Source of the DNA: a virus
Lineage: Duplodnaviria > Heunggongvirae > Uroviricota > Caudoviricetes
Virus record (IMG/VR): IMGVR_UViG_2541047745_000013
Reading direction: 5' to 3' (one strand)
DNA: 13,518 nt
Both the position numbers and the translations under genes were made by a program. The notes beneath the pieces were generated by a model. It saw only the letters and a program-made list of their open reading frames with translations. It did not search any database and had not been told where the DNA came from. Shown here piece after piece: positions 1-13,518 of this stretch. Position 1 is the first letter of the stretch, and each line of letters opens with the position of its first letter.

Positions 1-819
1 ATGCGATTAGCCAGTCGTTTTGGTTATGCGAACCAGGTACGTCGTGATCGTCCGCTGACACACGAAGAACTGATGCGCCATGTACCGAGTATTTTTGGGG
101 AAGACCGACATACCTCCCGCAGTGAACACTATGCGTACATTCCCACTATCACCGTCCTGGAAAATCTGCAGCAGGAAGGCTTTCAGCCATTCTTCGCCTG
201 CCAGACCCGCGTACGTGACCCGGGCCGCCGGGGATACACAAAACACATGCTGCGCCTGCGCCGTAACGGGGAGATAAACGGACAACATGTCCCTGAAATT
301 ATTCTGCTCAACTCCCATGACGGTACCTCCAGCTACCAGATGCTGCCGGGTTACTTCAGATTCGTCTGCCAGAACGGCTGCGTCTGCGGTCAGTCTCTGG
401 GGGAAGTCCATGTGCCCCACCGGGGAAATGTGGTGGACAGAGTCATTGAAGGGGCTCACGAGGTAGTGGGCGTTTTTGACCGGATTGAGGAAAAGCGTGA
501 TGCCATGCAGTCTCTGGTTCTGCCGCCACCGGCACGTCAGGCACTGGCACAGGCGGCGCTGACTTACCGTTATGGTGATGAACATCAACCCGTCACCACT
601 GCCGACATTCTGACACCACGACGCCGGGAGGATTACGGTAAGGACCTGTGGAGCGCATATCAGACCATCCAGGAGAATATGCTGAAAGGCGGGATTTCCG
701 GCCGTAGTGCAAAAGGAAAACGTATCCATACCCGCGCCATTCACAGTATCGACACCGACATCAAGCTCAATCGCGCATTGTGGGTGATGGCGGAAACGCT
801 GCTGGAGAGTATGCGCTGA
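1..819 (+). CDS. DUF932-domain protein (YfjQ/YafZ family)
   Basis: 272-codon ORF with ATG at window position 1 and TGA at 817-819. The translation (MRLASRFG ... NRALWVMAETLLESMR) matches my recollection of YfjQ-type proteins. Upstream context is not visible, so the start cannot be verified. Confidence 0.8.
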   Translation: MRLASRFGYANQVRRDRPLTHEELMRHVPSIFGEDRHTSRSEHYAYIPTITVLENLQQEGFQPFFACQTRVRDPGRRGYTKHMLRLRRNGEINGQHVPEIILLNSHDGTSSYQMLPGYFRFVCQNGCVCGQSLGEVHVPHRGNVVDRVIEGAHEVVGVFDRIEEKRDAMQSLVLPPPARQALAQAALTYRYGDEHQPVTTADILTPRRREDYGKDLWSAYQTIQENMLKGGISGRSAKGKRIHTRAIHSIDTDIKLNRALWVMAETLLESMR

Positions 820-910
820 TGTTGTTTCCCTGAAAGTGCAACCCTGACTCACGTCTGTATCAGTCCCCAGGCATTCTTCCATTCATTTGCTTTTTATAAG
901 GAATAGTCTC

Positions 911-1396
911 ATGACAACCTCTTCGCATAATTCCACCACACCTTCTGTTTCCGTAACAACTGCATCAGGGAATAACCAGTCTCAACTGGTTGCCACTCCT
1001 GTCCCTGATGAACAGCGCATCAGTTTCTGGCCGCAGCATTTTGGCCTCATTCCACAGTGGGTGACCCTGGAGCCCCGTGTCTTCGGCTGGATGGACCGTC
1101 TGTGCGAAGACTACTGCGGTGGTATCTGGAATCTGTACACCCTGAACAACGGCGGGGCATTTATGGCCCCTGAACCGGATGGCGATGATGACGAAACATG
1201 GGTACTGTTCAATGCCATGAACGGTAACCGCGCTGAAATGAGCCCGGAAGCCGCCGGCATTGCCGCCTGTCTGATGACGTACAGCCATCACGCCTGCCGT
1301 ACGGAGTGTTATGTCATGACGGTTCATTATTACCGTCTGCGGGATTACGCCCTGCAGCATCCGGAATGCAGCGCCATTATGCGCATCATTGACTGA
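911..1396 (+). CDS. Antirestriction-family protein (YfjX/YafX-like)
   Basis: The open frame begins at TTG 887, but ATG 911 has an AAGGA 9 nt upstream and gives the MTT... N-terminus expected for this family. TGA stop at 1394-1396. Conserved-looking core WPQHFGLIPQWV ... GGIWNLYTLNNGG. Confidence 0.8.
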   Translation: MTTSSHNSTTPSVSVTTASGNNQSQLVATPVPDEQRISFWPQHFGLIPQWVTLEPRVFGWMDRLCEDYCGGIWNLYTLNNGGAFMAPEPDGDDDETWVLFNAMNGNRAEMSPEAAGIAACLMTYSHHACRTECYVMTVHYYRLRDYALQHPECSAIMRIID

Positions 1397-1411
1397 AAGG
1401 GGGCCGGAACA

Positions 1412-1888
1412 ATGCAACAGATTTCCTTTCTGCCCGGAGAAATGACAACCAGAGAGCGCAGCCTCATTCAGCGGGCCCTGAAAGCCCTGGACCGCCATCT
1501 TCATGAACCCGGCGTGGCCTTCACCTCCACCCGTGCGGCACGGGAATGGCTGATTCTGAACATGGCGGGACTGGAGCGTGAAGAATTCCGGGTGCTGTAT
1601 CTGAATAACCAGAATCAGCTGATTGCCGGTGAAACCCTCTTCACCGGCACCATCAACCGCACGGAAGTCCATCCCCGGGAGGTGATTAAACGCGCCCTGT
1701 ACCACAATGCCGCTGCCGTGGTGCTGGCACACAATCACCCGTCCGGTGAAGTCACACCCAGCAAGGCAGACCGCCTTATCACGGAACGTCTGGTACAGGC
1801 ACTGGGCCTGGTGGATATCCGGGTACCGGACCATCTGATAGTCGGTGGCAGCCAGGTTTTCTCCTTTGCGGAACACGGCCTGCTTTAA
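1412..1888 (+). CDS. RadC-like JAB/MPN-domain protein (YeeS/YfjY/YkfG family)
   Basis: 158-aa ORF with AGGGGG ribosome-binding site upstream of ATG 1412. Contains the HNHPSG JAMM-type motif (…VVLAHNHPSGEVTPSKAD…). TAA stop at 1886-1888. Confidence 0.9.
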   Translation: MQQISFLPGEMTTRERSLIQRALKALDRHLHEPGVAFTSTRAAREWLILNMAGLEREEFRVLYLNNQNQLIAGETLFTGTINRTEVHPREVIKRALYHNAAAVVLAHNHPSGEVTPSKADRLITERLVQALGLVDIRVPDHLIVGGSQVFSFAEHGLL

Positions 1889-1956
1889 CCCGTCACCGTC
1901 ACAACCACATCACACCTGTTTTCACTTTTATCTTCTGTCTTCAGAGGTATCCCATC

Positions 1957-2178
1957 ATGAAAATCATCACCCGTGGTGAAGCCATGCGTATTCACCGTCA
2001 GCATCCGGCATCCCGTCTTTTCCCGTTCTGTACCGGCAAATACCGCTGGCACGGCAGCACTGAAGCGTATACCGGTCGTGAAGTGCAGGATATTCCCGGT
2101 GTGCTGGCCGTGTTTGCTGAACGTCGTAAGGACAGTTTTGGCCCGTATGTCCGGCTGATGAGCGTCACCCTGAACTGA
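1957..2178 (+). CDS. DUF987-domain protein (YeeT/YpjJ/YkfH family)
   Basis: 73-aa ORF MKIITRGEAMRIHRQHP…RLMSVTLN, at the expected position between the RadC-like gene and the antitoxin. Confidence 0.8.
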   Translation: MKIITRGEAMRIHRQHPASRLFPFCTGKYRWHGSTEAYTGREVQDIPGVLAVFAERRKDSFGPYVRLMSVTLN

Positions 2179-2291
2179 TGTTCCGTCACCCGGAAAACGA
2201 GTACGACTGGCTGAGCTCAGACGCCGCTGTGGATGAGGCCCTGCTCATAAACGAATACACCTTTACCGAAGGCGGTCTGCGCGCCGGCTGA
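2178..2291 (+). CDS. Candidate 37-aa small ORF coupled to the DUF987 gene (speculative)
   Basis: ATG at 2178-2180 overlaps the DUF987 TGA (2176-2178) in a TGATG arrangement. Reads MFRHPENEYDWLSSDAAVDEALLINEYTFTEGGLRAG, stop TGA 2289-2291. No ribosome-binding site other than coupling; may be a remnant. Confidence 0.2.
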   Translation: MFRHPENEYDWLSSDAAVDEALLINEYTFTEGGLRAG

Positions 2292-2340
2292 CCTGTCATC
2301 GTTAAACCATTCTTAACCGATTTTCTGTGAGGATTTTATC

Positions 2341-2709
2341 GTGTCAGACGCACTCTCCGGGACAATGCTTCCCGACGACAATCACGACCGCCCCTGGTGG
2401 GGGCTGCCCTGCACCGTGACGCCCTGTTTCGGGGCACGTCTGGTGCAGGAGGGTAACCGCCTGCATTACCTTGCCGACCGCGCCGGTATCAGAGGCCTGT
2501 TCAGCGATGCAGATGCGTACCACCTGGACCAGGCCTTTCCGCTGCTGATGAAACAACTGGAACTCATGCTCACCAGCGGTGAACTGAATCCCCGCCATCA
2601 GCATACCGTCACGCTGTATGCAAAAGGTCTGACCTGCAAAGCTGACACTCTCGGTAGCGGTGGTTACGTTTATCTGGCTGTTTATCCGACGCCCGAAACG
2701 AAAAAGTAA
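2341..2709 (+). CDS. cbeA: Type IV toxin-antitoxin antitoxin CbeA (YeeU family)
   Basis: GTG start at 2341 with GAGGA about 8 nt upstream. The 122-aa translation ([49 protein letters not shown]…) closely matches my recollection of E. coli YeeU/CbeA. Confidence 0.9.
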
Positions 2710-2798
2710 ACCACCGGAATAATCGTCTGTTCCGGCCCGGTGCATTACAGCACCACTCTTCCCACAATTTACTCTCTCATATCAGGAATATCTTCAGT

Positions 2799-3176
2799 AT
2801 GAAAACATTACCCGACACACACGTACGGGAGGCATCGCGCTGCCTGTCTCCGGTTGAAATCTGGCAGACACTGCTCACCCGGTTACTGGACCAGCACTAC
2901 GGCCTCACACTGAATGACACACCGTTCGCTGATGAACGTGTGATTGAGCAGCATATTGAAGCAGGGATTTCACTGTGTGACGCGGTGAACTTTCTCGTTG
3001 AAAAATACGCCCTGGTGCGTACCGACCAGCCGGGATTCAGCCCCTGTACCCGCTCTCAGTTAATCAACAGTATCGATATCCTCCGGGCACGCCGGGCAAC
3101 CGGCCTGATGACCCGCGATAACTACAGAACGGTAAATAACATTACCCGGGGTAAGCATCCGGAGGCGAAACAATGA
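2799..3176 (+). CDS. cbtA: Type IV toxin-antitoxin toxin CbtA (YeeV/YkfI/YpjF family)
   Basis: 125-aa ORF with the conserved core [52 protein letters not shown] as recalled for YeeV. Lies immediately downstream of cbeA. Confidence 0.9.
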
Positions 3177-3661
3177 AACTGGCCCTGACGCCGGAAGCCG
3201 ATAGCATTAACGTGCAGGCACTGAACATGGGGCGCATTGTCGTTGACGTCGATGGTGTTACTCTCGCTGAACTGATTAACGTGGTCTGTGATAATGGCCA
3301 CTCCCTTCGTATTGTTGATGAATCTGACCGGGCCTCAACAGACTGCATGCCACCATTTGCTGCCCTTACCGGTATACGCTGCAGTACCGCACATATCACG
3401 GAAACGGACAACGCCTGGCTGTACTCGCTGTCACACCAGACTAATGACGACGGCGAATCAGAATGGATTCATTTTACCGGCAGCGGCTATCTGTTACGTA
3501 CTGATACGTGGCCGTATCCGGTTCTGCGGCTTAAACGACTGGGCCTGTCCAGAACGTTCCGCCGTCTGGTTGTCACTCTCATCCGCCGTTATGGCGTCAG
3601 TCTCATTCATCTGGATGCCAGTGCCAGATGCCTGCCGGGTTTACCCACTTTCAACTGGTAA
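3173..3661 (+). CDS. YeeW-like protein (DUF-type family that follows cbtA in CP4-type islands)
   Basis: 162-aa ORF whose ATG (3173-3175) overlaps the cbtA stop (ATGA at 3173-3176). Assignment rests on position and gene order, not on a recognised motif. Confidence 0.65.
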
Positions 3662-3672
3662 CCAGGAACAAC

Positions 3673-3870
3673 ATGAAATCATTAACCACGGAAACCGCAC
3701 TGGATATTCTGATTGCGTGGCTGCAGGACAATATCGACTGCGAATCGGGGATTATCTTCGACAACGATGAGGATAAAACGGATTCGGCAGCACTGCTGCC
3801 CTGTATTGAACAGGCCAGGGAAGATATCCGTACCCTGCACCAGTTGCAGTTTCTGCAACAGAACTGGTGA
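3673..3870 (+). CDS. DUF957-domain small protein
   Basis: ATG 3673 preceded by AGGA at 3663-3666. 65-aa product MKSLTTETALDILIAWLQDNIDCESGIIFDNDEDKTD…; the longer frame from 3628 lies inside the previous gene and is less likely. TGA stop 3868-3870. Confidence 0.7.
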   Translation: MKSLTTETALDILIAWLQDNIDCESGIIFDNDEDKTDSAALLPCIEQAREDIRTLHQLQFLQQNW

Positions 3871-3899
3871 GTCTTACTCACCAGACTTCATTCCACTGA

Positions 3900-3931
3900 C
3901 GCCAGCCTGAACAGGGCTGGCGTTTTCATTT
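3900..3931 (+). terminator. Rho-independent terminator after the cbeA-cbtA-yeeW-DUF957 block
   Basis: 7-bp GC-rich stem CGCCAGC (3900-3906) / GCTGGCG (3916-3922) with a 9-nt loop, followed by TTTTCATTT. Confidence 0.7.
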
Positions 3932-3984
3932 ATCTGCAAAAAGGAATATCGATTATATCTGAACTCACAGCCTCCCGTCCGGAA

Positions 3985-4809
3985 GTGGTCAACGGACATA
4001 CGGACGTTATCGGCTCAACCAGTATCCGCCACATTCTGGCTGTACGACAGAGTACATTGCTGCAAATCGACACACTTATCCGGCAACTGGCTGAAATCTC
4101 AGCAATGACAGTAAGTATTGGCGGTAAAACTGCACTGGACTGGGCCATGAAACAGGATTTTCGCTGCGGTTTCTGGCTGATGGAGAAACCTGAAATCGCA
4201 ATGAAAGCCATCACCCGGAATCTCGATCGCGAACTCTGGCGTGACCTGATGCAACGTTCCGGGATGCTTTCCTTAATGGATGCACAGGCCCGTGAGACAT
4301 GGTACCGGTCACTGGAGTACGATAATGTCCCGGAAATCAGTGAAGCAAACATTCTGAACACATTTAAACAACTGCACCAGAATAAGGATGAGGTGTTTGA
4401 GCGAGGGGTGATCAACGTCTTCAGGGGACTGAACTGGAATTACAAAACCAATTTACCCTGCAAATTTGGCAGTAAAATTATCGTCAACAATCTGGTGAGA
4501 TGGGACCGGTGGGGATTTCATATTGTCACCGGACAGCAGGCTGACCGGGTTGCTGACCTGGAAAGGATGCTGCACCTGTTCAGCGGCTGGCCCATCCCCG
4601 ACAACCGGGAAAATATCATCATCCGTCTGGATGACCACATTCAGTCCGCTCAGGGTCAGGAGTGCTATGAATATGAAGATGAGATGTTCAGCATCAGATA
4701 CTTTAAGAAGGGCTCCGCGCACATCACGTTCAGAAAACCGGAACTGATTGATCGGCTAAATGACATCATTGCGAAGTATTATCCAGAAATAATCCCATAC
4801 AATATCTAA
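3985..4809 (+). CDS. DUF4942-domain protein (conserved terminal gene of CP4-type islands); start codon uncertain
   Basis: 274-codon ORF ending TAA 4807-4809. The first canonical start in frame is GTG 3985 with no convincing ribosome-binding site; the frame is open back to 3871. Family call from recall of the gene order CbtA / YeeW-like / DUF957 / DUF4942. Confidence 0.65.
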   Translation: MVNGHTDVIGSTSIRHILAVRQSTLLQIDTLIRQLAEISAMTVSIGGKTALDWAMKQDFRCGFWLMEKPEIAMKAITRNLDRELWRDLMQRSGMLSLMDAQARETWYRSLEYDNVPEISEANILNTFKQLHQNKDEVFERGVINVFRGLNWNYKTNLPCKFGSKIIVNNLVRWDRWGFHIVTGQQADRVADLERMLHLFSGWPIPDNRENIIIRLDDHIQSAQGQECYEYEDEMFSIRYFKKGSAHITFRKPELIDRLNDIIAKYYPEIIPYNI

Positions 4810-4853
4810 TAAAACTAATCATTTCTTGTTGTGACTGATTTAGTTGAACCATA

Positions 4854-4899
4854 CTGCATGGTCGAGTAGACAGGGTATCTCAGACCATGCATGTATTTT
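4854..4899. terminator. Possible bidirectional terminator between convergent DUF4942 gene and integrase
   Basis: Inverted repeat TGCATGGTC (4854-4862) / GACCATGCA (4882-4890) followed by TTTTT (4895-4899). The 19-nt loop is long for an intrinsic terminator. Confidence 0.3.
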
Positions 4900-4901
4900 T
4901 A

Positions 4902-6221
4902 TCATCTGTTCCCAAATTTTATATGAATAACATTATCCGGAGCATTCTGCTGCACAGTAATGACGTTATTCATAATAAAATTCCCCCATTCTATAAATAA
5001 ATTTTTTAATTTTTCAGCTTGTTGTCCGACTTGATATGTTCGTATTAAACGGTCTTTGGGTACATGATTTAACAGTAACTCTATTAGGCGCTCTGGAGCA
5101 TCAAGGTATTCAGCGCATCCAGTCGCAACACTTCTACGCAGATCATGAGGAGAAAATGGAGTAAGTTCGGCTAGATACTTAGAGCGAACCCTTTCTAACG
5201 CGCGAGTCAGAGCGTCATTTGTGATGGGAAAGTCAGGTTTGCTAGTAGAACCAAAAACATATGCACCTTCAGTGAATTCACGTTGTGTTTTTATTAAAGA
5301 AAGCATATACGGATGTAAAGTAACAATATGGCTTTTCCCATTTTTAGTGGCTGGTATGGTCCAACGCTCTCCATTAATTTGATCCCAGCGCATTTGTGCC
5401 GCTTCAGAGCGGCGCACTCCTGTGAAAATAATCAAACGGAGTGCATTTGCGACAGAATGAGATAATACCACACTAGAGGAAATTCCATAGCCACCAGATG
5501 CAATGGAGCCTCCTCCAACAGTAGCATCATCCAAAGCCTTCCATAGCATCCGGAGTTCATTCTCAGGAAGCCATCGCTCGCGAGGTTTATTCATCGATGC
5601 ACCAAACATTGCTGGTTTGAGCAGTCGTGCTGGGTTATGCTCAAGCATACCCTGTAAGTTGGCATGATCAAGAGTCATATTTAGAATAATTAATCCTTTA
5701 CGAACTGCTTCAGAACTGGTTTTTCTTACATTACTGAGATGTTCAAAAATAACGCTTTTGGTAAGTTCGTCAATGCGAAGGTTTCCTAATGCTTTTTCAA
5801 GGTGGCGGTGATAAGTCCCTTCATAATCTGCAAGGGTTCTGGTGCTAATTGGTTTGCTTGTCTTTCTGAATTCTATCCAATCTTTCCATAATTCAGAGTA
5901 AATAATCATTTGTTCATTTTTTTGTTTTTCATTTTTTCTAATATGACGAGGATCTATACCTTTTCTTACTAATTCAATTGCATCCGCATGAGCTTTACGA
6001 GCTTGAGCTAATCCCATGGCAGGGTAACTACCTAGTGTTAATTTAGCTGGCTTTTGAGCTATTCGATAACGATAAATCCAGCTTTTATTGTCGCTACCAT
6101 AACGAACGCGTATAAAGAGTCCTCCCCCAGCTTTAGATTTTACAGCAAATAAGATTTCTTTTTCTTCTTTAGTAACGGTCAATGAAGCCAATTGTCTGTC
6201 TTGTGTAATAGTAAAAGTCAT
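4902..6221 (-). CDS. Tyrosine recombinase / phage integrase (P4-type; plausibly IntF-like of CP4-6-type islands)
   Basis: Open frame 4902-6257 on the - strand. Preferred start is the ATG at 6221-6219 (MTFTITQ…), which places the GGGL arm-binding motif at a typical distance; ATG 6257 is the alternative. C-terminal catalytic signature is present (…RRSEAAQ…, HDLRRSVAT, LNHV, RTYQ). Sampled 60-nt stretches are about 37-40% GC versus 52-60% in flanking genes. Confidence 0.9.
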   Translation of the reverse strand: MTFTITQDRQLASLTVTKEEKEILFAVKSKAGGGLFIRVRYGSDNKSWIYRYRIAQKPAKLTLGSYPAMGLAQARKAHADAIELVRKGIDPRHIRKNEKQKNEQMIIYSELWKDWIEFRKTSKPISTRTLADYEGTYHRHLEKALGNLRIDELTKSVIFEHLSNVRKTSSEAVRKGLIILNMTLDHANLQGMLEHNPARLLKPAMFGASMNKPRERWLPENELRMLWKALDDATVGGGSIASGGYGISSSVVLSHSVANALRLIIFTGVRRSEAAQMRWDQINGERWTIPATKNGKSHIVTLHPYMLSLIKTQREFTEGAYVFGSTSKPDFPITNDALTRALERVRSKYLAELTPFSPHDLRRSVATGCAEYLDAPERLIELLLNHVPKDRLIRTYQVGQQAEKLKNLFIEWGNFIMNNVITVQQNAPDNVIHIKFGNR

Positions 6222-6386
6222 ATCTTCAGCCTTTTGGGTACACAGCGGGGTACACATTTAACATGATATCATCAGAAACAAGGCGAAACATCTTGATACT
6301 GCATTTGTGTGTATTTTATTGATTTTTATATATTTTTTATTGTATGTTGAAACGGCTGTGAACATCTTGAATCACTGGTCTCGCTA

Positions 6387-6597: not shown

Positions 6598-7812
6598 GTG
6601 AAACTCAATGCCCGTCAAATAGACACAGCCAAGCCAAAAGAGAAGGCTTACAAGCTGGCCGATGGTGGCGGTTTGTATCTCTTGGTAAAACCTAATGGAG
6701 GTAAATACTGGCGACTTAAATATCGTGTAGCTGGTAAAGAGAAGCTATTGGCACTAGGTGTGTATCCTGAGGTTACTCTAGCCGATGCTCGGGCAAAACG
6801 TGAAGATGCGAAAAGAGGTATCGCTGGTGGTATCGATCCGATGGAAGCGAAACGAGAGGAAAAGATTGCCCGGGAAACGCAGTTAAACAACACCTTCAAA
6901 GATATTGCCCTTGAGTGGCACAGCAGCAAATTAAAAAAATGGTCTGCTGGTTATGCTTCAGACATCCTCGAAGCCTTCAACAAAGATGTGTTCCCTTACA
7001 TTGGCAAAAAACCAATCGCCGAAATCAAACCACTTGAACTTCTGAATGTGCTGCGGCGCATCGAGGGGCGCGGTGCGACAGAAAAAGCCAAAAAAGTGAG
7101 GCAGCGGTGCGGGGAAGTTTTCCGCTATGCAATAGTCACTGGTCGCGCAGAGTATAACCCTGCACCAGACCTTACTAGCGCGATGCAAGGCCATGAATCT
7201 AATCATTACCCTTTCCTTACGACCAAAGAATTACCTGATTTTTTCAAGGCATTATCCAGTTACTCAGGAAGCGCATTGGTTGTTATGGCGGCTCGTCTAC
7301 TGATTATCACCGGCTTGCGAACTGGCGAACTACGTGGCGCATTATGGGATGAAATTGATTTCAACAAGGCTATATGGGAGATACCCGCTTCACGTATGAA
7401 AATGCGGCGGCCTCATATTGTGCCATTGTCTGAGCAGGCTCTTTCGCTTATTGGGAAGATTAGAGAAATAACAGGCAATTACCCTCTTATGTTTCCCGGG
7501 CGCAATGATCCAAGGAAAACAATGAGTGAGGCCAGCATAAACCAAGTGTTTAAGCGCATTGGCTACGCTGGACGTGTAACTGGTCATGGGTTCCGACACA
7601 CTATGAGCACGATTTTGCATGAGCAGGGCTATAACACCGCGTGGATAGAAACGCAGCTCGCTCACGTTGATAAGAACTCAATTCGTGGCACATACAACCA
7701 TGCGCAATATCTGGATGGACGGCGGGAGATGCTTCAATGGTATGCCGACTATATGGATTCTCTCGAGCATGGCGGAAATGTGGTGCATATGGTGTTTGAA
7801 AAACACGCATGA
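6598..7812 (+). CDS. Tyrosine recombinase / phage integrase (P4 / CP4-57 IntA-like)
   Basis: 404-aa ORF with GTG start at 6598 and GGAGG at 6582-6586. N-terminal arm-binding-like region (KPKEKAYKLADGGGLYLLVKPNGGKYWRLKYR…LGVYPEVTLADAR). C-terminal signature GLRTGELRG, HGFRHT, and the terminal tyrosine region AHVDKNSIRGTYNH. TGA stop 7810-7812. Confidence 0.9.
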   Translation: MKLNARQIDTAKPKEKAYKLADGGGLYLLVKPNGGKYWRLKYRVAGKEKLLALGVYPEVTLADARAKREDAKRGIAGGIDPMEAKREEKIARETQLNNTFKDIALEWHSSKLKKWSAGYASDILEAFNKDVFPYIGKKPIAEIKPLELLNVLRRIEGRGATEKAKKVRQRCGEVFRYAIVTGRAEYNPAPDLTSAMQGHESNHYPFLTTKELPDFFKALSSYSGSALVVMAARLLIITGLRTGELRGALWDEIDFNKAIWEIPASRMKMRRPHIVPLSEQALSLIGKIREITGNYPLMFPGRNDPRKTMSEASINQVFKRIGYAGRVTGHGFRHTMSTILHEQGYNTAWIETQLAHVDKNSIRGTYNHAQYLDGRREMLQWYADYMDSLEHGGNVVHMVFEKHA

Positions 7813-8239: not shown

Positions 8240-8443
8240 ATGGCTAATTACAATTCATTAATTCGTCTCTCTGAAGTTCAAAGGCGAACTGGTTATAGCA
8301 AAGCATGGATTTATCGTCTTATTAGTCAGGGGAGGTTCCCTAAACAGGTAAAAATTGGAAGTCGGGCAATTGCTTTTGTTGAGTCTGAAATAGATGAATG
8401 GATTGAGAAGTGTATATTAGAATCTAGAGACGAGGTGGCCTGA
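8240..8443 (+). CDS. alpA: AlpA-family phage regulatory protein / excisionase-like helix-turn-helix protein
   Basis: 67-aa ORF with AGGA 9 nt upstream of the ATG. Motif IRLSEVQRRTGYSKAWIYRLISQGRFPKQVKIGSRAIAFVESEIDEWI matches the AlpA/Vis-type pattern. Confidence 0.85.
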   Translation: MANYNSLIRLSEVQRRTGYSKAWIYRLISQGRFPKQVKIGSRAIAFVESEIDEWIEKCILESRDEVA

Positions 8444-8886: not shown

Positions 8887-9720
8887 ATGAACATCGAAAA
8901 AAGCAGATTAATTTCTGAGGCTGCCCCTCATCTGAACGCCTCTCTGGGCACAATTAACGGTAATGAATTTGCCGCAATTGTCCCGGTTATTCCTGGTCAT
9001 ATCGGTGGGCGTGAAACCAATATTGTTAGCGCAAAAGCGTTACACAAAGCGTTGGGCGTGGGAAAAGACTTCTCTACATGGATCACTGATCGCATCTCTG
9101 AATATGACTTCACCATTGGGCACGATTACTCAGTCCATAAAACTATTTCCCCAAATTTGGGGAAAATCCCGAATGGCGCGGCTTACAGCAAGATTAAGCA
9201 GTCTGGAAGACCCGGCAAAGACTATCTGTTAAGTGTCGGAATGGCGAAAGAACTGGCAATGATCGAACGCAATGATCAGGGGCGCGCTATCCGCCGTTAT
9301 TTCATCCAGTGCGAGGAAGAATTACAGCGTAGCGTGCCTGAAATCGCCGCCCGCTATCGTCGCCAGCTAAAAGCCCGTATCAGTGCCGCAAACAACTTTA
9401 AGCCAATGTGCGATGCGCTGAATATGGCCCGTGCCGAGATGGGGAAAACGACGCAGCAACACCACTACACAAACGAGAGCAATATGATTTCTCGTATCGT
9501 TCTTGGTGGGCTAACTGCTAAGCAGTGGGCGCGGATAAATGGCTATTCTGGCGAACCTCGCGACCATATGAACGCAGAACAGCTTGAGCACCTCTCATAT
9601 CTCGAAAGCACCAATATCACGTTAATTGATATGGGCATGGAATATGAGCAGCGCAAAGGAGAACTCACCCGCCTGTCGCAACGCTGGCTCGCTAAGCGTC
9701 TGGAGGCGGTCCATGTTTAA
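8887..9720 (+). CDS. Phage antirepressor-like protein (AntA-domain-like N-terminal region)
   Basis: 277-aa ORF with GGAG upstream. The region …ALHKALGVGKDFSTWITDRISEYDFTIGHDY…GRPGKDYLLSVGMAKELAMIERNDQGRAIRRYFIQCEEEL resembles AntA-type antirepressor domains as I recall them; not verified by search. Confidence 0.55.
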   Translation: MNIEKSRLISEAAPHLNASLGTINGNEFAAIVPVIPGHIGGRETNIVSAKALHKALGVGKDFSTWITDRISEYDFTIGHDYSVHKTISPNLGKIPNGAAYSKIKQSGRPGKDYLLSVGMAKELAMIERNDQGRAIRRYFIQCEEELQRSVPEIAARYRRQLKARISAANNFKPMCDALNMARAEMGKTTQQHHYTNESNMISRIVLGGLTAKQWARINGYSGEPRDHMNAEQLEHLSYLESTNITLIDMGMEYEQRKGELTRLSQRWLAKRLEAVHV

Positions 9721-9895
9721 GCCGACAGGAACACCACAACCTCAAAAACGCTACAAAGATGCCCACGGAGCACTCGTTACTGTCGAAAGCGTGTCTCACA
9801 ACCGAGTGACGTTTTATCGCGACGGGTATCAATCGCCATGCGTACAACCGCTGGCACGTTTCATGAAGGAGTTCGCGGAGGTTAACAAATGCTAA
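9713..9895 (+). CDS. Small hypothetical protein (60 aa; possibly DUF4222-like)
   Basis: ATG 9713 with GGAGG at 9702-9706, overlapping the upstream TAA (9718-9720). Product [60 protein letters not shown]. Confidence 0.55.
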   Translation: MFKPTGTPQPQKRYKDAHGALVTVESVSHNRVTFYRDGYQSPCVQPLARFMKEFAEVNKC

Positions 9896-10956
9896 CCGCC
9901 CAGAAGAAGACATTTTCACTGGCTGGTATGTCGCCAAAATCCAGCAATATGACAGCAAAGTCAGGCATTAATACAGCAGATACAAGCAAAGTTTATCATT
10001 TGCTGGTGGTAGGAGCGGATGCCTTAACTATGTCAGAAATTACGGTCGATGGTGTTAGCGTTGAGAAGGTCAGCGGCTGCGCCAGAGAATTTCTGGTCGT
10101 AGATGGCTTTCTCTGCTCGCGTAGTGACTCCACAAAAACCTTCGTCCACGCGCGTGACGTTAACGAAATGAGCGCGATGTACTGTGCTTCTGGTTCTTCC
10201 AATAGTGAGTTTTCGGAGTCCATAAAAAAGAGCTTGCCGTTATGCGGCAACACGGTTTATGGTTATAAGGCACCTCATAAAACGGGTGCCGGGATTGGCG
10301 TCCTGGTAAATCGAATGGCGACATATGACGCGCCGAGCGTCTTTTTTTATGTCGTAGGTCTGACTCACCCATTTTTTGGGCGTTGGTGTATAATCCAGCG
10401 CCTTTGTCAATCAATGGTGGCTCAGGCAGGGGCTTCTTCGGAAGCGCCGGTATCCATTCGAGCCGGTTACGCCAACCCTGTCTGGGCTACCACCAGCGAA
10501 ATTGGCGTTTCCGGTGGTAGCGTTACATGCTATCGAATGGAGGCTGCCACATGCTGGCTACTACCCCTACCCAAAAACCGCAATTTATCTGGATTATCGC
10601 CGCAGTTCGCCGCGATTGCCCGACAATTACCGCCAAAATTCATCATATTGCTGCCGAGTCTGAACGCGATGCTCGCCGTTCTCTGGTGCGCGATCACGTC
10701 TGCTTTTTTGCTGGTCGTATCCGCATGGAGGTGGCACATGATTAAAACCTACGATGTGCATATGGATCCCCTCGAACGCACAAGCCAGATCATCACACTG
10801 ACAGAAGTGATTAACGACATTCTGGTGAGCAACTCTCCCTCACGAGACGAAAGACTGAAGGCGTTACTCGCGATATTGGATCTCGCCGTTCGTGACGTTC
10901 ATTTCCTGCTGGAAGGTGGCGAAATGCCAGTAAAAACGGGGGAAACCAATGAATAA
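9889..10956 (+). CDS. ORF of unresolved extent: strong coupled start at 9889, frame open for 355 codons through a terminator-like hairpin, a promoter-like element and the Icd-like gene
   Basis: ATG 9889 with GGAGG at 9877-9881 overlaps the upstream stop. The other two + frames have many stops across 9889-10330. The first roughly 145 codons look coding; beyond about 10330 the translation is A/S/G/L/P-rich and resembles off-frame reading. No in-frame stop until 10954-10956. Confidence 0.3.
10327..10348 (+). terminator. Candidate intrinsic terminator (short GC stem plus T7 run)
   Basis: GACGC (10327-10331), loop GCCGA, GCGTC (10337-10341), then TTTTTTT (10342-10348). The stem is only 5 bp. Confidence 0.35.
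10360..10394 (+). promoter_or_regulatory. Candidate sigma70 promoter (perfect -10 TATAAT with upstream TG; weak -35) for the icd-like operon
   Basis: TATAAT at 10389-10394 preceded by TG at 10387-10388 and a T-rich tract at 10372-10377. No good TTGACA at 17-bp spacing. Confidence 0.35.
10400..10530 (+). ncRNA. Candidate structured leader / immunity-type antisense RNA region (P1 c4 / P4 CI-like by position) upstream of the icd-like gene
   Basis: Hairpin GCTTC-TTCG-GAAGC at 10432-10445 (UUCG tetraloop closed by C-G). A 9-bp stem GCTACCACC (10486-10494) / GGTGGTAGC (10513-10521) with an 18-nt loop. A related motif TGGTGGCTCAGG at 10415-10426. Translation of this stretch looks non-protein-like. 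Confidence 0.3.
10551..10745 (+). CDS. Host cell-division inhibitor Icd-like small protein
   Basis: ATG 10551 with GGAGG at 10540-10544. 64-aa product [64 protein letters not shown] resembles Icd-like proteins of P4-type prophages as I recall them. TAA stop 10743-10745. Confidence 0.55.
   Translation: MLATTPTQKPQFIWIIAAVRRDCPTITAKIHHIAAESERDARRSLVRDHVCFFAGRIRMEVAHD
10738..10956 (+). CDS. Hypothetical small protein (72 aa)
   Basis: ATG 10738 with GGAGG at 10727-10731 overlaps the icd-like stop. Acidic, helical-looking product. Same frame as the long 9889 ORF. Confidence 0.5.
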   Translation: MIKTYDVHMDPLERTSQIITLTEVINDILVSNSPSRDERLKALLAILDLAVRDVHFLLEGGEMPVKTGETNE

Positions 10957-11143
10957 CTCAATTAATACCCCTCGCCTTACGTCCGCACTTCAATTAATCG
11001 AGCAAGCAGCGGCTGTCCTGGTTGCTGTCAGTCTTTCGGCTGAAGAAATGGACGCTACTGATGTCGTGGATGCGATTAAAGCGTGCTCATCTTTGGTTAA
11101 CGATGCCCGTGCAGAGCTGGTAATTCTTGGGGGTGAAAAATGA
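10949..11143 (+). CDS. Hypothetical small protein (64 aa)
   Basis: ATG 10949 with GGGGGA upstream overlaps the previous stop by 8 nt. Product [64 protein letters not shown]. Confidence 0.55.
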   Translation: MNNSINTPRLTSALQLIEQAAAVLVAVSLSAEEMDATDVVDAIKACSSLVNDARAELVILGGEK

Positions 11144-11403
11144 ATATCAACTTAATTTATCGTCATCCGTGTGAGCTGGAAATTGAATCATTGCTGAGCC
11201 GTGAAGAGCCATATCCAGACACATTCACTCTTGCAGATCGCACGACTGAACGGCTTACCAGAGCGCGCACAGGTCTGGTTCATGTGATGAATGAGATTCT
11301 TCCATCGGTGGGAGGGGAACAGGCGACAGTAATCACTAGCTGGCTACAAAAAGTTACCTCTCTGATAGATATCAGTTTAATCGATGCGGAGAGTGCGAAA
11401 TGA
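11140..11403 (+). CDS. Hypothetical protein (87 aa)
   Basis: ATGA overlap with the previous stop at 11140-11143; G-rich ribosome-binding site upstream. Confidence 0.6.
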   Translation: MNINLIYRHPCELEIESLLSREEPYPDTFTLADRTTERLTRARTGLVHVMNEILPSVGGEQATVITSWLQKVTSLIDISLIDAESAK

Positions 11404-11621
11404 CCAACATCCAGCTCATTGAAGCGCAATGTCGCATCGAACAGGTTCAGACTGTTTTAGGGTTCTGGCTTGAAGGGGCCAGCCCCAGCAACAGAGACAA
11501 GTTAATGATTGGCGCGGTTATGTCACTGCTCAATGGCGTACCAGAAGCTATTCAGGAAGCAGACGAATTGTTGGGCAAATATGAGTTACAGAATCATTCA
11601 GGCGAGGCGAAACATGAATAA
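11400..11621 (+). CDS. Hypothetical protein (73 aa)
   Basis: ATGA overlap at 11400-11403; GGAG 8 nt upstream. Confidence 0.6.
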   Translation: MTNIQLIEAQCRIEQVQTVLGFWLEGASPSNRDKLMIGAVMSLLNGVPEAIQEADELLGKYELQNHSGEAKHE

Positions 11622-12216
11622 TTTCTTAACTTTCCATGCAGAAGCAACGCCTGACGGCGTAAACATCATGCACCGCAGCAACGATGGCATGACAGAACGC
11701 GTTGAGACCGTCTCATATATTGATGCCGTAAATCGTCTGGATGCCGGGGATTATGACGATAAACCAGATGAAGGCATGTCAATACATCTCGCTATAGCCG
11801 ATGGCGGCAACCAGGGATATTTCGATTACACATCACAGCATAACGTCATTATGTGGAGATGGCTGATCGCAACAGTATTCATGCTGGAAATGAGAGAGGA
11901 AAACGGCACTGTCAGCATCATTGATGATACTGGCAATCCTTCCGAAGTGGCTGTTTATTCCAACGGCATCGTCGCCATGCCGCTGTATCCAGTAGCAGAG
12001 CGCCTCGCTATGGCAAACAACATTGAGGGCGCGATGATAGAACGTTTTGGCATCGAGTCTGGCACAGAACGCGCCATCATTTTCTACAGAGCCATGATGG
12101 ATGTGGAACAAGGAGCACTGACTCCATTTGGTCGTGAAACGCTTGCTGAACTTCACAACAGCTTTATAGCTGAACTGAATGAAAACGGCATGCCAGCGGA
12201 ACCAGTGACGCACTGA
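11614..12216 (+). CDS. Hypothetical protein (200 aa)
   Basis: ATG 11614 with GAGG at 11604-11607, overlapping the previous gene by 8 nt. The track ORF beginning 11509 is the same frame read through the upstream gene. No family recognised. Confidence 0.6.
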   Translation: MNNFLTFHAEATPDGVNIMHRSNDGMTERVETVSYIDAVNRLDAGDYDDKPDEGMSIHLAIADGGNQGYFDYTSQHNVIMWRWLIATVFMLEMREENGTVSIIDDTGNPSEVAVYSNGIVAMPLYPVAERLAMANNIEGAMIERFGIESGTERAIIFYRAMMDVEQGALTPFGRETLAELHNSFIAELNENGMPAEPVTH

Positions 12217-12226
12217 GGATGGAGCC

Positions 12227-12568
12227 ATGATTACTAAAAATTTCCGACTGAATGCGCTGGCAAATAAGTATGCGTCGGCACTGTATAACCACATTACCTC
12301 CACCAGCGGCGGGGACTATTTCATGGTTGATGCGGACGGCGAGGCCGTACGTGTGGAAATCGTCAATGGAGTAAAAGGCGTTCGCAGCCTGATCGATAGC
12401 TACACACTGGCAGCCATGAAAGTGTTCTACCCGCAGTGGGAAACCGTGGGGATCGAGCTTCTTGATCGTTGCGTCACTAAGGACGGATTGACTGACGTCG
12501 GGCGTGAGATATGGCAAAGCATGGTTAATGACATGGGCGCAACTGTAGCGGGAGGTTCTCATGCGTGA
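12227..12568 (+). CDS. Hypothetical protein (113 aa)
   Basis: ATG 12227 with GAGGA at 12216-12220. No family recognised. Confidence 0.6.
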   Translation: MITKNFRLNALANKYASALYNHITSTSGGDYFMVDADGEAVRVEIVNGVKGVRSLIDSYTLAAMKVFYPQWETVGIELLDRCVTKDGLTDVGREIWQSMVNDMGATVAGGSHA

Positions 12569-12932
12569 AAATGCAGAAATGGCGCTTAGCTCCGCAATCG
12601 GAGAGCAGGTGGCAAAGATTGCTGGTGCTGTGTGGATTCATAACCTTCATTCTACTGGTGAAGAGAAAATGGCAATTCAGACGCCAGAGGGACGCACCAT
12701 TACTACATCTCTGAAGCCGTCAGATGTTTGTGATCTGATTTGCGCATTCATGTACCCAGCAATGAGGACTGCCCACGGCGATAAGTGGAAACTTGCGACA
12801 ACCGCTGAATTTGATATGTGGCTAAACAATGATGGCATGCTGACTGATTACGGAATAACCAAGTGGCAGATGCTGGTTAGCCATATCGCAAACGCTATAG
12901 ACCACGTGGGGTACGGTGATGCGAAACATTGA
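12561..12932 (+). CDS. Hypothetical protein (123 aa)
   Basis: ATG 12561 with GGAGG at 12551-12555, overlapping the previous stop by 8 nt. Confidence 0.6.
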   Translation: MRENAEMALSSAIGEQVAKIAGAVWIHNLHSTGEEKMAIQTPEGRTITTSLKPSDVCDLICAFMYPAMRTAHGDKWKLATTAEFDMWLNNDGMLTDYGITKWQMLVSHIANAIDHVGYGDAKH

Positions 12933-13518
12933 TCTTATCCGTCAGGTTATCAGTGCGTCTGAAAACAACTGGCCTCATGTGCTGGGCTGCCTGAACATAA
13001 ATGTCCCTGACTCTCCGCGCCGTCATGCTCCCTGCCCTGCATGTGGGGGCAAAGATCGATTCCGGTTCGATGACAACGGGCGCGGTAGCTTCATCTGTAA
13101 TCAGTGCGGCGCTGGTGATGGGCTGGATTTAATTAAACGCGTAAATAACTGCGACACAACAGAGGCGGCGCTTCTTGCCGCTGATGTTCTGGGTATTGAT
13201 TACCGGACAACGGAAACACCAGAAGCCACCAGCCAGAAACGGGAACAACTGGAAACCGAGCGCCAGCGACGCGAACAGGAGCGCCTGAAAAGGGCAGAGA
13301 AGGACGAACAACAAAGACGGGATACGTTTTCCCGTCAGTTTGATGACATGCGCAGAAAGGCTGTAAACGGCAAATCTGATTATCTGGTTGCGAAAGGGGT
13401 AGGTGATTTTACATTCCCCGTGTTGCCCGATGGATCTCTGTTGCTGGCGCTGGTGGATAAATCCGGCGCAGTCACAGCAGCACAGACTATTACCTCACAT
13501 GGTGAAAAAAGACTCCTG
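12919..13518 (+). CDS. DNA primase, P4 alpha / PICI Pri-type (N-terminal zinc-ribbon; 3' truncated by window end)
   Basis: ATG 12919 overlaps the upstream stop (12930-12932). My own translation gives …HAPCPACGGKDRFRFDDNGRGSFICNQCGAGDGLDLI…, the CxxC…CxxC zinc-binding motif of P4-type primases, followed by a charged ERQRREQERLKRAEKDEQQRR linker. This ORF is absent from the supplied track because it has no stop in the window. Confidence 0.85.
   Translation, partial: MRNIDLIRQVISASENNWPHVLGCLNINVPDSPRRHAPCPACGGKDRFRFDDNGRGSFICNQCGAGDGLDLIKRVNNCDTTEAALLAADVLGIDYRTTETPEATSQKREQLETERQRREQERLKRAEKDEQQRRDTFSRQFDDMRRKAVNGKSDYLVAKGVGDFTFPVLPDGSLLLALVDKSGAVTAAQTITSHGEKRLL

Follow-up and report, generated by a model that had tools for sequence, protein, structure and literature searches.

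An intact copy of the C4/CI-type antisense RNA upstream of cell-division-inhibitor and primase genes in an E. coli genomic island

Genes and leader elements at the locus

The window, that is, the whole stretch of 13,518 nucleotides analysed here, carries a leader region, an Icd-like gene, a row of overlapping small genes and the beginning of a primase gene, all on the same strand. The main features are as follows.

10234-10263, + strand: candidate leader promoter (-35 TTGCCG at 10234-39, 18-nt spacer, -10 TATGGT at 10258-63, predicted start near G10270)
10270-10347, + strand: isrK-like / P4 seqA-type leader RNA (Rfam RF01394, 67.1 bits against a gathering threshold of 50, full length)
10327-10341, + strand: intrinsic-terminator hairpin GACGCGCCGAGCGTC, followed by T7 at 10342-10348 (terminator scan)
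10389-10394, + strand: perfect TATAAT, within the 62-nt spacer between isrK and C4
10410-10497, + strand: C4/CI-type antisense RNA (Rfam RF01695, 79.5 bits against a gathering threshold of 45, E = 1.3e-14, model positions 1-87 of 87)
9889-10956, + strand: 355-codon stop-free frame (PGAP 'ash family protein', WP_000958748.1)
10551-10745, + strand: Icd-like / P4 Kil-like gene of 64 aa (NCBIfam NF033153 phage_ICD_like, 71.7 bits against a cutoff of 25)
10738-10956, 10949-11143, 11140-11403, 11400-11621, 11614-12216, 12227-12568 and 12561-12932, + strand: overlapping small genes (ORF list)
from 12919, + strand: start of the primase gene (zinc ribbon PF08273); the window ends inside the gene at 13518

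The Icd-like protein is 39% identical to P4 Kil, which together with the NF033153 match bears out the gene identity proposed in the initial annotation. By analogy with P1 and P4, this would be the first gene under the predicted control of C4. The int, alpA and primase genes are present, and in strain 042 the primase gene encodes a TOPRIM+DUF927 protein. The genes after the primase in strain 042 are annotated as DUF2824, 'phage DNA ejection protein' and hypothetical. Neither sid, psu nor delta is annotated downstream in that strain, and the island does not look like a canonical P4. No tRNA gene was found in the window, and no Rho-dependent or other terminator was identified 3' of icd.

IsrK and C4 are the counterparts of P4 seqA and CI RNA (Barquist et al. 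2013, PMC3632133; Hershko-Shalev et al. 2016, PMC4825925). The locus was compared with related ones in a set of 41 loci, P4 and 39 Enterobacterales genomes included. The isrK and C4 pair occurs in the same order in P4, in the P1-like phage RCS47 and in 39 of the 40 loci found via the Icd/Kil protein. With a 371-nt query covering the module, matches were obtained in 2,908 of 5,426 complete E. coli genomes.

The RF01394 match was also found in P4, at the same relative place, and in 39/40 related loci. The element has three hairpins, ends in an intrinsic terminator and lies directly 5' of C4, as it does in P4, the P1-like phage and 39 loci. The hairpin with its T7 run is present where the initial annotation had placed it; it proved to be the 3' hairpin of the isrK/seqA element and not the end of the preceding gene. 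We take this hairpin to be the equivalent of P4 t1. Folded alone, the isrK element has an unremarkable energy (z -1.0), so its support rests on the covariance model and on conservation. The Rfam model RF03163 (c4-a1b1) gave no match in the window at the gathering threshold (46.7 bits), and 13 related loci score 46.8-50.2 bits; the a1 and b1 sites themselves are present in the window.

The aligned upstream sequences of the 41 loci share GGCTTGC, a spacer of N17-18 and TATAGT, ending 6-7 nt 5' of the isrK start. At the promoter position P4 has TTGCCT...TATAGT, and RCS47 has ggtttatgcttatcagGCACCTCA where the window has ggtttatggttataagGCACCTCA. In position, the candidate leader promoter is the equivalent of P4 PLE and of the sequence 5' of the isrK-like element in RCS47, and it would probably be active. 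A consensus promoter scan called nothing at 10234-10263, where the -10 box TATGGT is weak. The initial annotation had let the leader begin after the TATAAT at 10389. This is not so: homology with P4 and the P1-like phage puts the start at about 10270 and the promoter 5' of isrK/seqA.

The C4 RNA, its fold and its target sites

The C4 RNA and the sites complementary to it consist of the following parts.

10415-10431 with 10476-10492, + strand: C4 closing stem, 17 bp
10432-10445, + strand: C4 hairpin 1 with a C(UUCG)G loop, part of the Rfam C4 model
10446-10467, + strand: C4 hairpin 2, whose loop carries a' UCCAUUCGA at 10453-10461
10469-10475, + strand: C4 single strand b', ACGCCAA
10492-10495, + strand: C4 3' tail A-CCA, after the tRNA-like stem
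10295-10301, + strand: target b1, TTGGCGT, in the loop of isrK hairpin 2
10311-10318, + strand: target a1, TCGAATGG, inside the isrK-like leader
10502-10508, + strand: target b2, TTGGCGT, in the 18-nt loop of the alternative helix
10533-10541, + strand: target a2, TCGAATGGA, overlapping the Shine-Dalgarno GGAGG (10539-10543) of the Icd-like gene, ATG at 10551
10486-10521, + strand: alternative 9-bp helix, GCTACCACC (10486-10494) with GGTGGTAGC (10513-10521), in which the 3' half of the C4 closing stem pairs with a repeat further downstream

A search with the Rfam C4 covariance model, which the initial annotation had proposed as a check, gave a positive, full-length match well above the gathering threshold, with a score equal to those of P4 and the P1-like phage. 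The C-UUCG-G hairpin that had been noticed at 10432-10445 is hairpin 1 of this model. The predicted minimum free energy (MFE) of 10400-10560 is -79.5 kcal/mol (z = -5.6), and 0 of 200 shuffled sequences were as stable. With the E value of the C4 match, this places the structure suspected earlier far beyond chance. The MFE fold of the window reproduces the C4 structure.

The fold is also conserved in homologous elements. Across 37 distinct sequences and 27 base pairs, 99.7% of the cells were paired, and 13 pairs showed compensatory changes on both sides. This level of pairing and compensation was reached in 0/500 shuffles, and slid controls paired in 29-52% of cells. The hairpins of the initial annotation are therefore retained with compensatory changes.

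We then examined the complementarity between C4 and its surroundings. In the window, 8 nt of a1 and 9 nt of a2 are complementary to a', and each of the two b targets, b1 and b2, pairs with b' over 7 nt; 0 of 20,000 shuffles yielded all four matches jointly. The targets are ordered b then a, which fits antiparallel pairing with a' then b'. The complementarity to the ribosome-binding site of the Icd-like gene that had been looked for is thus present: a2 pairs with the loop of C4 hairpin 2 and takes in part of the Shine-Dalgarno motif of icd/kil, the first gene of the operon. The a2 run ends 8-12 nt 5' of the icd ATG in 41/41 loci. The complementary a/b stretches are short, at 7-9 nt, and this was counted against reading the region as an immunity module.

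The specificity of the sites varies among the 41 loci: the a sites fall into 14 classes and the b sites into about 8, and 23 combinations of an a class with a b class occur. The L003-type element, for example, differs from the window in its a'/b'. Cognate runs average 7.4-8.7 nt at the a sites and 6.9-7.0 nt at the b sites, compared to about 4.1-4.4 nt for non-cognate ones. With these 23 combinations, the set illustrates on a small natural scale how an RNA 'immunity code' can be built from two parts.

The 9-bp stem described earlier at 10486-10521 is real and perfect. It is mutually exclusive with the C4 closing stem. A perfect complement of 5-9 bp was found at the same place in 41/41 loci, and it co-varies as ACCACC/GGTGGT, ATCGCC/GGCGAT (in P4) and ACCGCC/GGCGGT. 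The GGTGG(C/T) repeats of the initial annotation are likewise present, at 10416, 10489 (minus strand), 10513 and 10730. However, the copy that had been placed close to the icd ribosome-binding site (10730) serves the next gene (ATG 10738) and not icd. GGTGGY was found 20 times in the whole window against 11.9 expected, a number reached in 2 of 200 shuffles. We rejected it as a meaningful repeat since the enrichment is marginal and the copies are the 5' strand of the C4 stem, its minus-strand complement and the 3' arm of the alternative helix.

What we observed directly here is which RNAs are present and how they fold, where the targets lie and how these co-vary, which genes surround them and that an open frame is conserved across the module. 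The interpretation in the initial annotation is correct in its essentials, and all findings agree with the published IsrK-C4 (seqA-CI) system. The best explanation for the whole is that window positions 10234-10553 hold a complete IsrK-C4 RNA immunity module (seqA-CI in P4; a1b1-c4-a2b2 in P1), to which we assign a probability of about 0.88. The C4/CI antisense RNA copy is an ordinary, intact one. The RNA family, its targets and its mechanism have been known for decades from P1, P7 and P4, and both publications and Rfam already document the pairing of IsrK with C4 in P4-like prophages. The value of the locus as a discovery is small, and its practical value lies in annotation. Since the module is so common in complete E. 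coli genomes, a corrected annotation would touch many of them.

The predicted switch and alternative readings

Processing, repression, termination and escape would proceed here as in P1, P4 and Salmonella, from which these steps are taken over. A promoter 5' of 10270 would transcribe the leader, whose nt 1-78 would form the isrK/seqA element with b1, a1 and a leaky intrinsic terminator. C4 (10410-10497) would be carried on read-through transcripts. In P1 and P4, c4 and CI are stable RNAs of ~77-80 nt processed from a longer transcript, with RNase P acting at the 5' end. By analogy, C4 would be excised, with RNase P at its 5' end, to give a stable RNA of ~80 nt, in which a' (loop) and b' (single strand) would then pair in trans with b2/a2 on new transcripts. 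This pairing would cover the Shine-Dalgarno sequence of the Icd/Kil-like gene. With the gene untranslated, transcription would stop early, so that the operon and the primase would stay off and the island quiescent. Silencing of the small genes and the primase by C4 is presumed from P1 and P4. Pairing with b1/a1 may provide feedback at the leader terminator, or a short isrK-like RNA may titrate C4. On transcripts that start at an upstream promoter (the alpA-antA-DUF4222 operon), ribosomes reading the ash/eta frame would pass through the whole module, and such transcripts would thereby escape the RNA.

The frame that begins at 9889 spans the RNA module from the promoter through isrK and C4 to the targets, passes over icd in another reading frame and terminates together with the separate 72-aa gene at 10738-10956. 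The Pfam family PF10554 (Phage_ASH) matched aa 124-232, that is, nt 10258-10584, with 105 bits. In the window, in P4 eta and in three other loci, the domain has exactly the extent of the RNA module. The ash frame is free of stops in 40/41 loci, and the other two frames in 0/41. The open frame runs from 9886 on; all indels preserve it, and six different lengths of isrK plus spacer are each 2 mod 3. The central part of the 9889 frame is the counterpart of P4 eta. In the initial annotation, translation of the region as part of the 9889 ORF had been set down as evidence against an RNA. The region does sit in a conserved open frame, yet the RNA is not refuted by it, because P4 eta has the same open-frame arrangement and coexists with its RNA.

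We find it hardly credible that the region does no more than encode a portion of a 355-aa protein and that its RNA-like structure is incidental. The long stop-free frame, its PGAP coding sequence, the Phage_ASH match and its retention in nearly all loci speak for such a gene. However, both covariance models match far above threshold and the stems change by compensation. The three codon positions in C4 do not differ in variability (0.50, 0.55 and 0.54 bits), and codon periodicity of the ash/eta frame within C4 was absent. Variability follows RNA structure instead, with 0.38 bits in the stems and 0.90-0.95 bits in a' and b'. The limits of the Phage_ASH domain are those of the RNA module, and the ORF crosses a true Icd-like gene out of frame. 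We rejected its extension across icd to 10956 as a sign of selection since this stretch is open in 100% of synonymous icd permutations; the alternative frame across icd is open in 32/41 loci, whether used or not. In RefSeq the locus has no RNA, and 'ash family protein' covers the promoter, both RNAs, the Icd-like gene and the 72-aa gene; the identical 371-nt module sequence carries a different annotation in another genome. We also consider it very unlikely that the cryptic island is decaying and that its module survives as an inactive relic. The island in strain 042 lacks obvious capsid-hijacking genes, as a relic might. Against this, all parts are intact, the four target sites still match and C4 scores as in P4 and the P1-like phage; 136 complete E. 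coli records carry the 601-nt region with an identity of 99% or more, and the downstream genes are uninterrupted and overlapping.

Two further alternatives concern how the RNA module works. C4 could be a primary transcript from its own promoter at the TATAAT, starting near 10401 and independent of the leader, with the hairpin and T7 run ending the upstream transcript. The perfect -10 hexamer at 10389-10394, noted correctly in the initial annotation, lies 15 nt 5' of the C4 model start and has been retained in the window, L003, L007 and L071 despite differing flanks. However, it has neither an acceptable -35 nor an extended -10, and the promoter scan did not call it. Among the aligned loci it is present only in these four; at the aligned position it is absent from P4, the P1-like phage, L072, L074 and 36 others. 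The loci without it that reach far enough upstream all keep the promoter 5' of isrK. A conserved promoter at the TATAAT was therefore rejected, as it is confined to the close lineage of the window; it might serve C4 as a second promoter peculiar to this lineage, or be due to chance or to coding. We regard C4 synthesis from the TATAAT alone as doubtful, and the two promoters could coexist. The module might also be mainly an induction trigger and not a repressor, which we judge unlikely. It would then be an activator switch of the kind described in Gifsy-1, where a homologous module reportedly acts through a short IsrK that opens the long transcript rather than through simple repression (PMC4825925). 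The read-through transcript would be translationally silent through cis pairing of a1/b1 with a'/b', and a short isrK-like RNA would open it in trans and turn on the genes downstream. The MFE fold of the whole leader (10270-10560; -132 kcal/mol, z -5.95) does pair the middle of isrK with C4 a'/b' in cis and resembles 'structure A' of Hershko-Shalev et al. (PMC4825925), and the isrK match is strong. On the other hand, a2/b2 over the icd Shine-Dalgarno sequence are kept and co-varying in 41/41 loci, the hallmark of the P1/P4 repressor, and icd/kil followed by a primase is a P4 gene context, not a Gifsy-1 one. The repressor and activator modes are not exclusive.

The residues matched by Phage_ASH are the translated promoter, isrK, C4 and a2/b2. 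The 'family' therefore tracks the RNA module and a frame kept open, and no folded domain. We tentatively suggest, at somewhat less than even odds, that the 'Ash protein' family is no protein family in the ordinary sense but the translation shadow of the isrK-C4 module, with the frame kept for ribosome override and with lineage-specific twists. The frame may be held free of stops and frame-shifting indels while its amino acids are unconstrained, and ribosomes on read-through transcripts may cross the RNA targets and override RNA immunity. The icd gene is in frame with ash in 37/41 loci and offset by 2 in the window, L003, L007 and L074. In the lineage of the window, a one-base shift may uncouple the frame from icd, and the -10 box between the terminator and C4 could free C4 synthesis from termination in the leader.

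Comparison with known systems

The immunity region of P4 (PLE, seqA/t1, cI with CI RNA and seqB, seqC, kil/eta and, further on, the alpha primase) has its parts in the same order as the window. In both, the RNA has targets on its 5' and its 3' side, the downstream target sitting on the ribosome-binding site of icd/kil. Both also have homologous Icd/Kil proteins, an extended open frame across the module and a primase at the end of the operon. The specificities differ: a' is CCAUUCGA in the window and CCUGUGAA in P4, and b' is ACGCCAA in the window and UUCUCAC in P4. The spacer between isrK and C4 is 62 nt in the window compared to 107 nt in P4. Just 5' of the icd ATG, the window has GCCACATG and P4 has GCCATCATG, with the open frame shifted by one base in the window, so that it is not nested with icd as P4 eta is with kil. 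Unlike P4, the window has antA, DUF4222 and a 123-codon N-terminal extension between alpA/vis and the module.

The immI region of P1/P7 (P51, a1 b1, c4, a2 b2, icd, ant) belongs to the same RNA family and follows the same a/b logic with two sites. The window and the P1-like RCS47 have nearly identical sequences at the promoter and the first isrK hairpin (ggtttatgcttatcagGCACCUCAUUAAAACGGGUGCC), and the overlap of a2 with the icd Shine-Dalgarno sequence is common to the window and P1/P7. In the P1-like phage, however, a stop 5' of icd ends the frame that crosses C4. The gene controlled after icd is the antirepressor ant in P1/P7 and would be the primase operon in the window, where an AntA-family gene sits 5' of the module instead.

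In the Gifsy-1 system (IsrK, STnc1160/orf45, anrP), what the switch yields is an antirepressor, followed by the AntQ antiterminator; no Icd-like gene has been described between IsrK and anrP, unlike in the window (PMC4825925). Activation by the short RNA has been shown there (PMC4825925). In Gifsy-1, an IsrK RNA with a leaky terminator precedes a processed RNA of the CI type that has complementary sequences (PMC4825925); the window has RNAs of the same two kinds, with leakiness and processing predicted, and cis pairing between the middle of IsrK and the downstream RNA is predicted in Gifsy-1 and the window alike.

The isrK and C4 RNAs and their setting

The initial annotation had proposed a P1 c4 / P4 CI-type immunity RNA leader at 10327-10550. 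The covariance-model search suggested there was positive for C4 over the full length of the Rfam model, and isrK was matched directly upstream. In the window, the Rfam c4-a1b1 model scored under its threshold. In work on P4, the IsrK-like and C4-like RNAs go by the names seqA and CI RNA (PMC3632133, PMC4825925).

Genes and RNAs of the island carrying the module
6598-7812, integrase, first gene of the island
8240-8443, AlpA-family regulator, next gene
Between the AlpA- and AntA-family genes, 143-aa ORF
8887-9720, AntA-family antirepressor, upstream of the RNAs
9713-9895, DUF4222 protein, after the antirepressor gene
10234-39 and 10258-63, candidate leader promoter by homology (-35 TTGCCG, 18-nt spacer, -10 TATGGT)
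10270-10347, isrK RNA (RF01394, 67.1 bits)
10410-10497, + strand, C4 antisense RNA (RF01695, 79.5 bits, gathering 45, E 1.3e-14)
10551-10745, Icd-like gene (NCBIfam NF033153, 71.7 bits; 39% identity to P4 Kil)
Between the DUF4222 gene and the primase, run of small overlapping genes
From 12919 (zinc ribbon), primase; TOPRIM+DUF927 protein in strain 042

The described elements were all located: a hairpin (10327-10341) followed by seven T, TATAAT (10389-10394), the C(UUCG)G hairpin (10432-10445) and a perfect 9-bp stem (10486-94 with 10513-21). The hairpin with its T run, first read as terminator-like, is the 3' hairpin of isrK. GGTGGY repeats occur at 10416, 10513 and 10730; the copy at 10730 lies in the ribosome-binding site of the next gene (ATG 10738), not in that of icd. 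Predicted stability was well above that of shuffled sequence (z = -5.6 for 10400-10560; z = -5.95 for 10270-10560). The C4 fold was assessed on an alignment of 40 C4 sequences, 37 of them distinct. The C4 hairpins are kept in homologous loci, with standard pairs in 99.7% of cells under the Rfam fold and compensatory changes at 13 of 27 pairs. None of five fold measures was reached in any of 500 shuffles, and pairing fell to 29-52% when the partner was slid by 1-3 columns. The hairpin 1 tetraloop alternates between UUCG and GAAA among loci. All testable features that define the C4 family and isrK/seqA are present at the locus.

The module is already known. Phage P4 (C4 8507-8420, isrK 8692-8615), the P1-like phage RCS47 and 39 of 40 other Enterobacterales loci carry both RNAs in the same order and orientation; the 40 related loci were retrieved via the Icd/Kil protein alone. 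Window 10200-10800 (601 nt) is 100% identical to several complete Escherichia coli chromosomes, strain 042 included, and identity over this query reaches at least 99% in 136 records. The 371-nt module was matched in 2,908 of 5,426 complete E. coli genomes. In a phage collection (H21-H31: SfV, 2H10, Ayreon, 118970_sal3, Stx-converting phages), lambdoid and other temperate phages also matched the isrK-C4 segment, which lies there under genes annotated as antirepressor, Rha or 'immunity region', so the module is shared well beyond P1- and P4-type elements. Enterobacterial-type Icd-like genes also occur in records attributed to a Firmicute (L010, titled Vagococcus sp. WN89Y, which also has the isrK-C4 module) and to Bacteroidota (L039, a MAG titled Ferruginibacter sp.); both are likely contamination or mis-binning.

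To the left, window 1-6257 is the terminal part of another island, different from the first, with genes for DUF932, an antirestriction protein, a RadC-like JAB protein, CbtA toxin (type IV toxin-antitoxin), DUF5983 and DUF4942. Since it has its own integrase (4902-6257, minus strand) beside that at 6598-7812, two integrase-bearing elements are adjacent with diverging integrase genes. No tRNA gene was found between them in a search of the window.

Target sites and specificity

Segments of C4 (a', b') and their upstream (a1, b1) and downstream (a2, b2) sites
10295-10301, b1, TTGGCGT, loop of isrK hairpin 2; exact complement of b'
10311-18, a1, TCGAATGG, isrK linker; exact complement in a'
10453-61, a', UCCAUUCGA, within the 12-nt loop of C4 hairpin 2
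10469-75, b', ACGCCAA, single strand after C4 hairpin 2
10502-08, b2, TTGGCGT, downstream of C4; exact complement of b'
10533-41, a2, TCGAATGGA, overlapping GGAGG (10539-43), 9 nt before the icd ATG (10551)

The suggested complementarity to the icd-like ribosome-binding site is borne out, as a2 matches a' exactly and overlaps GGAGG. Both target pairs run b then a, which fits antiparallel pairing with a' then b'. All four matches were obtained jointly in 0 of 20,000 flank shuffles of the window. The 41 loci comprise 14 a' classes and about 8 b' classes in 23 combinations, and the target sites change along with them. Cognate runs averaged 7.4-8.7 nt at a-sites and 6.9-7.0 nt at b-sites, against about 4.1-4.4 nt for non-cognate runs, and b2 is a perfect 7-mer in 41/41 loci. 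The strongest evidence for functional a/b pairing is this joint change at three separate sites. Target-site co-variation is the classical basis of P1 versus P7 heteroimmunity.

In an Escherichia element (L003 2220-2500, L071 640-900; compared with window 10270-10550), specificity differs (a' CCUUGUAC, b' CUGCGAA). Its Icd is 98% identical to that of the window, and because all three sites changed together nonetheless, an immunity-cassette swap between otherwise near-identical islands is implied. In Mangrovibacter yixingensis (L031 41-268), a1 (3 nt) and b1 (4 nt) do not match its own C4, while a2 and b2 match over 9 and 7 nt. This is the only one of 41 loci with mismatched upstream sites; recombination has probably brought in an isrK segment of foreign origin.

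Leader start and the open frame

The leader had been thought to start after TATAAT; homology with P4, the P1-like phage and related loci puts the start at about 10270. In P4, TTGCCT-N17-TATAGT, which we take to be the PLE promoter, ends 6 nt before the isrK-like element, and GGCTTGC...TATAGT lies at the same place in nearly all related loci reaching far enough upstream. The region is near-identical between the window (ggtttatgcttatcagGCACCUCA) and the P1-like phage (ggtttatggttataagGCACCUCA). TATAAT 10389-94 is confined to the window, L003, L007 and L071, being absent from P4, the P1-like phage, L072, L074 and the remaining loci, and is no part of the conserved module design. It could be a lineage-specific second promoter, which we consider unlikely; sequence inspection and a promoter scan found neither a -35 nor an extended -10. 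On the minus strand, a terminator scan called a hairpin (TTGCCGCATAACGGCAA) followed by a T-run at 10234-10250, overlapping the leader-promoter -35, which could be a stop for antisense transcription into upstream genes or a chance match.

Translation within the 9889 ORF had been named as evidence against an RNA. That frame is indeed free of stops over 9889-10956, but it coexists with the RNA, and C4 variability tracks RNA structure (stems 0.38 bits, a' and b' 0.90-0.95 bits) while being equal at the three codon positions (0.50, 0.55 and 0.54 bits). From the isrK start as far as the icd ATG, this ash/eta frame is stop-free in 40 of 41 loci and the other two frames in none, and six isrK-plus-spacer lengths (101, 128, 140, 143, 146 and 185 nt) are all 2 mod 3. 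What appears to be kept is therefore the open frame, with its amino acids unconstrained. Pfam Phage_ASH (PF10554) covers residues 124-232, nt 10258-10584, which are the -10 box, isrK, spacer, C4 and a2/b2; the match is likewise module translation in the P4 long ORF (eta; L002 8704-8330), L005, L007 and L010. The family looks like a protein shadow of the RNA module. The only closed frame is that of Phytobacter diazotrophicus (L028 2363-2448), where a one-base deletion in C4 hairpin 1 brings a stop at 2411; its 86-nt C4 still scores 77 bits.

In 37 of 41 loci the ash/eta frame runs unbroken into icd/kil, presumably the arrangement of eta and kil in P4. The window differs by one base immediately ahead of the icd ATG (GCCACATG vs GCCATCATG), so that icd falls out of the ash frame, which then continues to 10956. 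This extension across icd gives no sign of selection, since 100% of synonymous permutations leave the alternative icd frame open, and 32 of 41 loci have it open, used or not. The final 72 codons form a distinct gene that has a GGAGG of its own and is annotated as such in another genome. In the N-terminal extension of the long ORF, the window has an imperfect palindrome (CGTCCACGCGCGTGACG, 10143-10159), and the corresponding translations upstream of isrK in L004-L006 carry a repeated motif, STR.REG.FSD; the sequences suggest repeated DNA sites (operators, iterons) rather than a protein domain.

RefSeq labels 9889-10956 a 355-aa 'ash family protein', and in strain 042 (L001 10690-11757) this is the single gene, with no icd and no 72-aa gene. 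Strain 510016 (L070 1586-2237) has a 146-aa 'Icd-like protein' and a separate 72-aa hypothetical protein. The module (10230-10600) is identical in both strains yet annotated inconsistently, and C4 and isrK are annotated in neither record. Correction of the RefSeq annotation and an 'Ash' protein family mirroring an RNA module are useful by-products.

Proposed mechanism and known systems

By analogy with P1, P4 and Salmonella, we propose that a transcript would start at the leader promoter and that a fraction would stop at the isrK hairpin to yield a short isrK-like RNA. The read-through remainder would be processed into an approximately 80-nt C4 RNA, which would pair with nascent transcripts at b2 and a2 and block the icd ribosome-binding site. 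The untranslated RNA would be terminated, and the small-gene operon and primase would stay silent. Pairing of C4 with b1/a1 may provide feedback at the leader terminator, or the short RNA may titrate C4. Transcripts of the alpA-antA-DUF4222 operon, translated through the module, would escape; Forti et al. are reported to have found in 1995 that only transcripts from an upstream promoter serve for translation of P4 eta and that this translation prevents termination.

The helix 10486-94/10513-21 takes up the 3' strand of the C4 closing stem and is thus in competition with the mature C4 fold; b2 is exposed in its 18-nt loop. A perfect complement of 5-9 bp stands at the equivalent place in 41/41 loci and co-varies, as with ATCGCC/GGCGAT in P4. 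Between cI and the kil region, P4 carries 't4', a Rho-independent terminator of an atypical kind, of which this helix is a candidate counterpart.

An activator-switch component like that of the Salmonella prophage Gifsy-1 would draw support from the full-leader fold, which pairs a1/b1 with a'/b' in cis and resembles the silent 'structure A' described there; we regard such a component as unlikely. The locus is an immunity module of the P4 type, and in promoter and first hairpin it is P1-like. It differs in having an a'/b' specificity of its own and an eta-like ORF that is frame-shifted.
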